DNA of 32,000 nt from Candidatus Thorarchaeota archaeon (GCA_008080745.1 SHMX01000001.1:360001-392000), one strand, 5' to 3'; shown: positions 23,023 through 23,526, numbered from the stretch's first letter. Program-made: numbers and translations. Notes: generated by a model from the letters alone, not told the origin.

Positions 23023-23526
23023 TTAGATCTGTTTTATTGTCCAAGTACAGGTTTCATCCCCAAGAGCGCTGCAAGATTCTTGATATGCATCGCCTTTGAA
23101 ACCCCGAAGAGTCAATACTGCTTGAAACACACCGCTTACAAGATTGCAATACTGTAAACCAGGCATATCATTGATAACAACACCTTCACAGATTGCGCAA
23201 TCATCATCGCTAAATTTGATTGTCATCTCATCATCGCTAATCCAAACATCGGTGAAGTCCTGTCCGGAATTGACTTTGTATGCGAGTTGCAGAGTGCTTG
23301 CAAATTCAGTAAAGCTCTGAGCATGTTGTTTTATTCGTTCTGCATAGTCCATTAGAAGATGTTCTCCCACTTTGAAGCCAATTTGTTTTAGTTTCTCATT
23401 GATTTCATCTACACTATCACAGGTCTGAAAGAGATTATTCAATAACTCTCTCCATACTGCTTGAAACAAGGGCTTGGAAACCTTATCGATTTTCAAAGCC
23501 CAGGCTAATCTTCCCTTAATTCCCAT
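23023..23526 (-). CDS. TRAPPC3/Bet3-like protein, paralog 2
   Basis: KVSKPLF..DEINEKLKQIGFKVGEHLLMDY..FTEFA..AYK..LQYCNLVSGVFQAVL parallels eukaryotic TRAPPC3 motifs recalled from memory; CAIC..YC..CSALGDETC cysteines. Confidence 0.85.
   Translation of the reverse strand: MGIKGRLAWALKIDKVSKPLFQAVWRELLNNLFQTCDSVDEINEKLKQIGFKVGEHLLMDYAERIKQHAQSFTEFASTLQLAYKVNSGQDFTDVWISDDEMTIKFSDDDCAICEGVVINDMPGLQYCNLVSGVFQAVLTLRGFKGDAYQESCSALGDETCTWTIKQI

Follow-up and report, generated by a model that had tools for sequence, protein, structure and literature searches.

Is the TRAPPC3-like gene at positions 23023..23526 (minus strand) of a Candidatus Thorarchaeota contig a genuine member of the TRAPPC3/Bet3 family or one more archaeal V4R protein, and how does it relate to the TRAPPC3 homologue already described from this phylum? 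In eukaryotes, TRAPPC3/Bet3 is a subunit of the TRAPP core, in which it occurs together with the longin subunits Bet5/TRAPPC1 and Trs23/TRAPPC4 and which acts as a guanine nucleotide exchange factor (GEF) for Rab proteins. Asgard TRAPPC3-like proteins have been cited as evidence that parts of this vesicle-tethering, Rab-activating machinery are older than the eukaryotes, and only one Thorarchaeota TRAPPC3 paralogue has been studied so far. Podar et al. (2008; PMC2253512) proposed that the Bet3 family arose from V4R proteins, and TRAPP-domain proteins were found in Thorarchaeota by Zaremba-Niedzwiedzka et al. (2017), according to the citing passages of PMC8204870 and PMC10152722. The two structures of the studied protein, Thor-TRAPPC3, show a Bet3/TPC6-like dimer with internal cavities and a zinc-bound form between V4R and Bet3; the discussion of operons in that work is restricted to the Lokiarchaeon MK-D1 (Tran et al. 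2024; PMC10933270). The literature already contains a TRAPPC3 homologue that has a zinc site and lacks the acylated cysteine. The gene analyzed here, which we call paralogue B (P0001), lies in a stretch of 32,000 nucleotides (the window; GCA_008080745.1 SHMX01000001.1:360001-392000) from a genome of 3.16 Mb that is 98% complete. It represents a second, unstudied, and distinct paralogue group of Thorarchaeota TRAPPC3, and its product is very probably a small soluble protein of the TRAPP/Bet3 fold.

The reading frame of paralogue B encodes 167 amino acids, starting with an ATG at 23526 and ending with a TAA stop codon at 23025-23023. The position of the start codon is well supported: the stop codon of the upstream gene (23546-23544) leaves a gap of 17 nt to the ATG, and inside this gap a GGAG motif resembling a ribosome-binding site can be read from the sequence, 10 nt before the start (23537..23540, minus strand). 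All strings quoted by a first-pass annotation, which had described the product as a very eukaryote-like TRAPPC3/Bet3 homologue, are found in the translation (KVSKPLFQAVWRELLNNL, VDEINEKLKQIGFKVGEHLLMDY, HAQSF, SFTEFASTL, LAYK, CAIC, LQYCNLVSGVFQAVL, and CSALGDETC). Paralogue B has orthologues in over 100 protein clusters, with identities of 62-78%. Where these clusters carry an organism name, it is nearly always Candidatus Thorarchaeota, with SMTZ1-83 among them, and more distant relatives, one of them named Ranarchaeia, follow at 44-47% identity. In the literature searched, we found no description of paralogue B or of its pairing with the Roadblock and winged-helix gene described below. No RNA run was listed as containing the stretch, and only two DNA runs, both from one marine-sediment metagenome study, contain it; the DNA analyzed here may have come from these runs.

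The family assignment by sequence refers to the curated Pfam gathering thresholds of 27 bits for TRAPP (PF04051) and 31 bits for V4R (PF02830). Paralogue B scores above the former (29.6 bits, E 6.6e-7) and below the latter (13.6 bits). Among the 33 orthologues from which the family profile was built, 32 match TRAPP at E ≤ 0.1 (best 1.9e-10), and 24 show sub-threshold V4R matches (best E 0.0034). A phmmer search of the PDB with the single sequence returned the Thorarchaeota TRAPPC3 proteins first (7YH3, E 1.5e-21; 7YH2, E 3e-20), followed by 13 eukaryotic TRAPPC3/Bet3 sequences with E-values from 2e-6 to 1e-3. With the family profile, eukaryotic TRAPPC3 was reached in the same database at 3e-13 to 3e-10 and TRAPPC5 at 0.004, and no V4R structure appeared at E ≤ 1. 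Searching 1.84 billion representative proteins with this profile gave 118 matches, with Asgard relatives on top, eukaryotic TRAPPC3-like proteins from 4e-11, and archaeal V4R-like proteins from about 2e-8. A Pfam scan of 105 full-length sequences (102 profile matches and three genes of the window) detected TRAPP in 78 and V4R in 24. This similarity to TRAPPC3 greatly exceeds what chance would produce. Together with the Bet3-like fold of the model, the Pfam score and the matches to eukaryotic TRAPPC3 bear out that paralogue B is a TRAPPC3/Bet3 homologue; a ranking of generic V4R above TRAPP/Bet3 in profile searches, which the first-pass annotation had named as an outcome that would speak against it, was not seen.

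The relation to V4R proteins was also addressed by comparing alignments. In hhalign, the family of paralogue B aligns over 170 columns with eukaryotic TRAPPC3 (E 2.8e-21) and over 158 columns with the archaeal V4R-like proteins nearest to it (E 2e-27), a comparison that places it between archaeal V4R-like proteins and eukaryotic Bet3. The named V4R-like neighbors are all archaeal and not bacterial, belonging to Baldr-, Hel-, and Odinarchaeia, Thermoprotei, and Bathyarchaeota. The intermediate position between V4R and Bet3 suggested earlier for this protein is thereby supported, but it is not new, as a zinc-site intermediate was published in 2024 for the paralogue.

The AlphaFold2 model of paralogue B (predicted local distance difference test, pLDDT, 83.3; predicted template modeling score, pTM, 0.79) begins with a low-confidence N-terminal segment, followed by four helices, one of which is broken at residues 59-61 and 69-71, and four strands, the second and third of which are separated by an additional helix. 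With its N-terminal helices and four-stranded sheet, the modeled chain shows the two-layer α/β fold of TRAPP. In a structural comparison by VIA-align, the model is most similar to Thor-TRAPPC3 (7YH3; Z 22.7, root mean square deviation [rmsd] 2.5 Å, 153 residues aligned), followed by the Bet3/TRAPPC3 proteins of mouse, human, yeast, fly, and Naegleria (Z 18.4-20.7, rmsd 1.9-2.5 Å, 150-160 residues), TPC6 (TRAPPC6; Z 17, rmsd 2.4 Å), and another yeast TRAPPII subunit (chain G of 7E8S, 7E2D, and 7E93; Z 15-16, rmsd 3.0-3.5 Å). The V4R sensor domains of MopR, DmpR, and PoxR (Z 12-13, rmsd 3.5-4.8 Å) and the V4R protein MJ1460 (Z 11.3, rmsd 4.1 Å) come last. Foldseek ranks the targets in agreement with VIA-align, with template modeling scores of 0.80-0.87 for 7YH3 and 0.82-0.83 for the Bet3 proteins of mouse and human at an rmsd of about 2 Å.

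Paralogue B shares with eukaryotic TRAPPC3/Bet3 (1WC8, 1SZ7, 2J3W, and 3CUE) the N-terminal helices, Gly50, Phe72, the motif A82-[YF]-K, and the helix Y-[CS]-N-L..G. It differs from these proteins by an alanine (Ala69) for the palmitoylated cysteine, by a zinc-type site of four cysteines, and by an adjoining gene for a Roadblock and winged-helix protein, and neither longin partners nor a Rab GEF activity are known for it. V4R domains (PF02830; the sensor domains of PoxR, MopR, and DmpR and the stand-alone MJ1460, 2OSO) belong to the same superfamily and have in common with paralogue B a cysteine-based zinc-type site near the C-terminus with a C-x7-C motif; the solved members contain an internal hydrophobic ligand pocket. 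Paralogue B, however, remains below the Pfam V4R threshold, gives a clearly weaker structural match to this group (Z 11-13, rmsd 4-5 Å) than to Bet3, and carries no fused AAA+ or sigma-54 activator module.

The genome contains exactly two PF04051 genes, both within the window. The other one, paralogue A (20151..20624, minus strand), encodes 157 amino acids and is an orthologue of the crystallized Thor-TRAPPC3 (phmmer to 7YH3, E 9e-81). Paralogues A and B are 24% identical (E 2e-28), and by sequence we class B as a paralogue, not an orthologue, of the crystallized protein. Both come from the same phylum and the same type of locus, and paralogue B resembles Thor-TRAPPC3 (7YH3 from SMTZ1-45 and 7YH2 from AB25) in its fold and its four cysteines, with no acylated cysteine in either. 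In contrast, it is only 24-26% identical to these two proteins and differs from them by an N-terminal extension of about 13-14 residues, a His-Ala pair, Phe72, and a fifth cysteine. It also scores much better against eukaryotic TRAPPC3, which is reached in single-sequence searches at E 2e-6 by paralogue B and only at 0.046 by paralogue A. The Pfam TRAPP score is higher for A (44.8 bits) than for B (29.6 bits).

Four cysteines of paralogue B are the putative ligands of a zinc ion. These are the pair Cys110-x-x-Cys113 (CAIC, 23188..23199), Cys127 (QYC, 23146..23148), and Cys160 (DETC, 23047..23049), all encoded on the minus strand. They are invariant in the 33 orthologues and match the only four cysteines of 7YH3: the pair is aligned with the CxxC motif of 7YH3 and 7YH2, Cys127 with the cysteine of GYC in 7YH3, and Cys160 with the C-terminal cysteine of 7YH3. 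In the Thor-TRAPPC3 crystals, zinc is bound by four cysteines (PMC10933270). The fifth cysteine, Cys152 (23071..23073, minus strand), forms with Cys160 the C-terminal C-x7-C motif of the V4R metal site. In 7YH3 this position is a serine, the Ranarchaeia-type orthologues P0105-P0108 have serine or glycine there, and most archaeal V4R-like relatives have the cysteine; this pattern suggests that Cys152 is probably dispensable and not an essential zinc ligand. In mouse TRAPPC3, a Ser-Asn hydrogen bond is found where the zinc site would be (PMC10933270). The putative zinc site of paralogue B corresponds to this bond, and the eukaryotic TRAPPC3-like sequences, which are without any of the cysteine ligands, have an asparagine at the column of Cys110, consistent with that.

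Cys68 of human TRAPPC3/Bet3 is conserved, lies at the start of helix 3, and is self-palmitoylated. At the position of the eukaryotic Arg67-Cys68, paralogue B has His68-Ala69 (23320..23325, minus strand), both invariant in the 33 orthologues. In a MAFFT alignment, the column of Ala69 holds a cysteine in 22 of 23 eukaryotic TRAPPC3-like sequences, and the register is identical in a HMMER profile alignment to human TRAPPC3, with Ala69 on the acylated cysteine. The pairing of RCHDF with HAQSF in the first-pass annotation was reproduced by both methods, as was its observation that the palmitoylated cysteine is absent. Its description of a cysteine-rich metal site in place of this cysteine is correct in that four zinc-type cysteines are kept and the acylated one is missing, but the two sites are separate. 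In both alignments, His68 falls on the eukaryotic Arg/Lys, Phe72 corresponds to a phenylalanine, and Ala82-Tyr-Lys pairs with Ala-Phe-Lys. His68, Ala69, Phe72, and Ala82 are invariant in the family of paralogue B and common to the wider Asgard clade of B-type proteins, but neither paralogue A (Thr-Ile..Arg) nor the V4R-like relatives share them. An alanine at the acylation position excludes a thioester-linked acyl chain, so that any ligand would be bound non-covalently. The palmitate of Bet3 is buried and dispensable for TRAPP I function. It is thought to stabilize Bet3 and not to mediate membrane binding (PMC8204860); the earlier conclusion that a protein that is not acylated needs partners for membrane targeting therefore does not follow, as it starts from the weak premise that the palmitate anchors Bet3 to membranes.

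Codons 1-14 of paralogue B encode the N-terminal extension MGIKGxLAWxLKxD (23485..23526, minus strand), which is absent from paralogue A. Within this region and directly after it, M1, G5, and K15 are invariant in the 33 orthologues, and G2, K4, and W9 are conserved in at least 90% of them. A start of the form MG[ILV]KG..W recurs in homologues from Odinarchaeota, Promethearchaeota, Jordarchaeales, Baldrarchaeia, and other Asgard archaea. In the model, the confidence of the extension is below 50. Its hydrophobic and polar residues alternate as in a β-strand, with a hydrophobic moment of 0.84 at 180 degrees that was reached by 70 of 5000 shuffled sequences. An amphipathic membrane helix was also considered for this segment and rejected, given a helical hydrophobic moment of 0.11-0.19 that most shuffles exceeded.

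Unlike Thor-TRAPPC3, B-type proteins are also found in Odin-, Prometh-, Jord-, and Ranarchaeia. In a quick maximum likelihood tree of 74 rows, calculated without TRAPPC5 or TRAPPC6 sequences, the named members from these four lineages and several metagenome proteins form a B clade of 18 rows with 95% support; the eukaryotic clade is supported by 99% and the deep nodes by 27%. Nesting of paralogue B among bacterial V4R proteins, the second outcome that the first-pass annotation had held against its own reading, was not seen, and the protein falls instead into this well-supported Asgard clade. Approximately unbiased (AU) tests rejected neither a tree joining the eukaryotes with the B clade (p-AU 0.60) nor one joining them with paralogue A (p-AU 0.65), and each of the two constrained trees had a better score than the tree from the unconstrained quick search. 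One metagenome protein of 296 amino acids, P0116, carries its B-type domain at about residues 139-293 (E 3e-35 to the family profile) behind an additional N-terminal domain of about 138 amino acids that begins MVTHAIYVYKTDGRLIF and has no match in Pfam. This protein may represent a fusion of longin and TRAPPC3 similar to the one described from Heimdallarchaeota in PMC10933270.

Directly upstream of paralogue B lies the gene for a candidate partner (23544..24458, minus strand), a protein of 304 amino acids that combines a Roadblock domain, an acidic disordered linker, and two winged-helix units, and the two genes are probably co-transcribed. In its AlphaFold2 model (pLDDT 82), residues 1-105 match Roadblock, MglC, MP1-p14, and KICSTOR entries with Z 11-11.7. 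The whole chain also gives weak matches, at about Z 10, to the GATOR1 chain 8fw5_B (Z 10.3, rmsd 14.5 Å) and the SEA complex chain 8adl_S; at an rmsd of about 14 Å, the domains are alike and their arrangement differs. A paralogue of the 304-amino-acid protein (33% identity, E 8e-65), again with Roadblock and winged-helix parts, is encoded by the gene preceding paralogue A (20650..21627, minus strand). Paralogue A is followed by a classical V4R-domain gene (19471..20046, minus strand; Pfam V4R 41.5 bits against the threshold of 31), which brings the members of the fold in this locus to three; unlike paralogue B, which has the CxxC pair, its product has Asn and Ala at the corresponding columns. 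Between the cassettes of A and B lie two genes for membrane proteins (21700-22437, plus strand, and 22421-22933, minus strand), which are convergent and overlap by 17 nt; one shows a weak match to DUF5518 and the other a zinc-ribbon-like CxC...CxxC tail.

This organization is not restricted to the genome analyzed here. Of 301 sampled genomes of the phylum, 76 belong to the same family, and 72 of these have PF04051 matches, mostly two; pairs that share a contig lie on one strand, separated by about 2.9 kb. Paralogue B and its upstream gene carry consecutive locus tags in nine metagenome-assembled genomes. In Ran-, Odin-, and Baldrarchaeia, the gene upstream of the B-like gene likewise ends in a winged-helix unit, which is homologous to residues 225-299 (approximately) of the 304-amino-acid protein, and the N-terminal part of these upstream proteins differs from that of the Thorarchaeota protein. 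On a Jordarchaeales contig (L005:3408-3950), the upstream gene encodes a weakly V4R-like protein of 180 amino acids (PF02830, 23.9 bits), so that this lineage has a tandem pair of the fold. A complex prediction for paralogue B and the 304-amino-acid protein gave scores of 0.30 and 0.23 against a mark of 0.32, which speaks neither for nor against binding.

Based on these observations, we regard paralogue B with good confidence as the second conserved paralogue of Thor-TRAPPC3, and we propose the following mode of action. As in 7YH3, the four cysteines would hold a structural zinc that links the last helix with the β-sheet. Not being thioester-acylated, the protein could keep a hydrophobic ligand non-covalently in an internal pocket of the Bet3/V4R type, along which the helices with Ala82 and Phe72, both shared with eukaryotic TRAPPC3, presumably run, and it would dimerize through its two N-terminal helices, either with itself or with paralogue A. 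It may act together with the protein encoded upstream, and the conserved strand-like extension may mediate this; at a guess, the extension could dock onto a sheet of the partner. Candidate processes are the regulation of small GTPases or membranes and the sensing of a ligand.

Several points weigh against this proposal. Zinc binding, dimerization, a ligand pocket, and association with a partner are assigned to paralogue B by analogy with its paralogue or from gene order. Paralogue B has five cysteines, and its true set of ligands could differ from that of 7YH3. The AlphaFold2 model may lean on Bet3 structures in the training data. Finally, the V4R-like and not winged-helix nature of the upstream gene in Jordarchaeales means that the partner is not universal.

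Three other explanations were weighed. That paralogue B is a generic archaeal V4R protein, which resembles Bet3 only through the shared superfamily fold, is highly improbable: even though the C-x7-C tail and the four cysteines are common to archaeal V4R-like proteins, 24 of the 33 orthologues show sub-threshold V4R matches, and the deep nodes of the tree are weakly supported (27%), the Pfam V4R score stays below its threshold while that for TRAPP exceeds it, the family profile detects eukaryotic TRAPPC3 (3e-13) and none of the solved V4R proteins, and the structural Z scores are 18-21 to Bet3 versus 11-13 to V4R. Moreover, the motifs HA..F and AYK match the eukaryotic [RK]C..F and AFK and are not kept in the V4R-like relatives. 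A possible, if doubtful, alternative is that paralogue B binds a small hydrophobic molecule and signals to the DNA-binding winged-helix protein next to it, in a two-protein version of PoxR, MopR, and DmpR. The V4R sensor domains are structurally related (Z 12-13), the hhalign match to archaeal V4R-like proteins (2e-27) is slightly better than that to eukaryotic TRAPPC3, and what the neighbors in different lineages have in common is a winged-helix unit, combined with N-terminal domains that vary; among the profile matches, one protein joins MarR and HTH_5 matches to the fold of paralogue B. Ligand binding is also favored by Tran et al. (PMC10933270), and B orthologues carry the JGI label "predicted hydrocarbon binding protein". 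However, the ligand of paralogue B is hypothetical, DNA binding by the winged-helix units is putative, with such units also serving as protein-protein modules in the eukaryotic GATOR1 and SEA subunits, and no candidate target or metabolic genes are consistently adjacent in the loci compared.

The remaining explanation sees in the locus a forerunner of TRAPP, in which Bet3-type homo- or heterodimers of A and B sit on Roadblock dimers of the two upstream proteins and regulate a Rab- or Rag-like GTPase at a membrane. Such an assembly, which we consider unlikely, would copy the eukaryotic TRAPP core with its Bet3-family subunits flanking longin subunits, and the Bet3-type dimers would dock on the Roadblock dimers, perhaps through the conserved N-terminal strand. 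Fold and sequence of paralogue B are closest to eukaryotic TRAPPC3, the Roadblock domain of its partner is genuine and belongs to a fold that serves as a platform for GTPases (PMC10933270), the cassette of two genes occurs twice, with two PF04051 matches in most of the sampled genomes of the family, and the tree joining the eukaryotes with the B clade was not rejected (p-AU 0.60). The additional N-terminal domain of P0116 and the reported longin-TRAPPC3 fusion of Heimdallarchaeota (PMC10933270) point in the same direction. On the other hand, a Pfam scan of 37 of the 38 open reading frames of at least 110 amino acids in the window (the overlapping frame 25573-26136, plus strand, was left out) turned up no gene for a small GTPase, and the element that stays with B-like genes across the Asgard lineages is the winged-helix unit and not the Roadblock domain. 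In addition, Tran et al. saw no targeting to membranes when the Asgard proteins of their study were expressed in HeLa cells as fusions to green fluorescent protein (PMC10933270), and the interaction among the proteins of the module is only a proposal. A more far-reaching version, in which paralogue B would be closer in sequence than Thor-TRAPPC3 to the ancestor of the Bet3 family and A, B, and both Roadblock/winged-helix proteins would form a hetero-oligomeric complex on an Asgard small GTPase, is speculative and in our view quite improbable. Between the GTPase-directed assembly and the sensor, the winged-helix neighbor slightly favors the sensor, and the Roadblock domain and the closeness to Bet3 favor the assembly.

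Our preferred interpretation of paralogue B as a second Bet3-fold paralogue gives the locus its significance. Compared with the studied Thorarchaeota protein, it is the better sequence match to eukaryotic TRAPPC3, has counterparts in several Asgard lineages, and is linked by gene order to a Roadblock and winged-helix protein. Paralogue B and its partner, or the set of four proteins encoded by both cassettes, thus offer a concrete object for questions of complex formation, ligand, DNA binding, and GTPase regulation.

Two further genes upstream of this locus were annotated. An open reading frame for a PfkB-family kinase (24510-25349, minus strand) matches positions 61-298 of the 302 positions of the Pfam profile when read from its first ATG, and its N-terminus may start further upstream at a non-canonical codon. 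A second frame (25623-26084, minus strand) encodes a protein of 153 amino acids that combines a ribosomal protein L13e domain with a helix-hairpin-helix domain (HHH_5) at the C-terminus.

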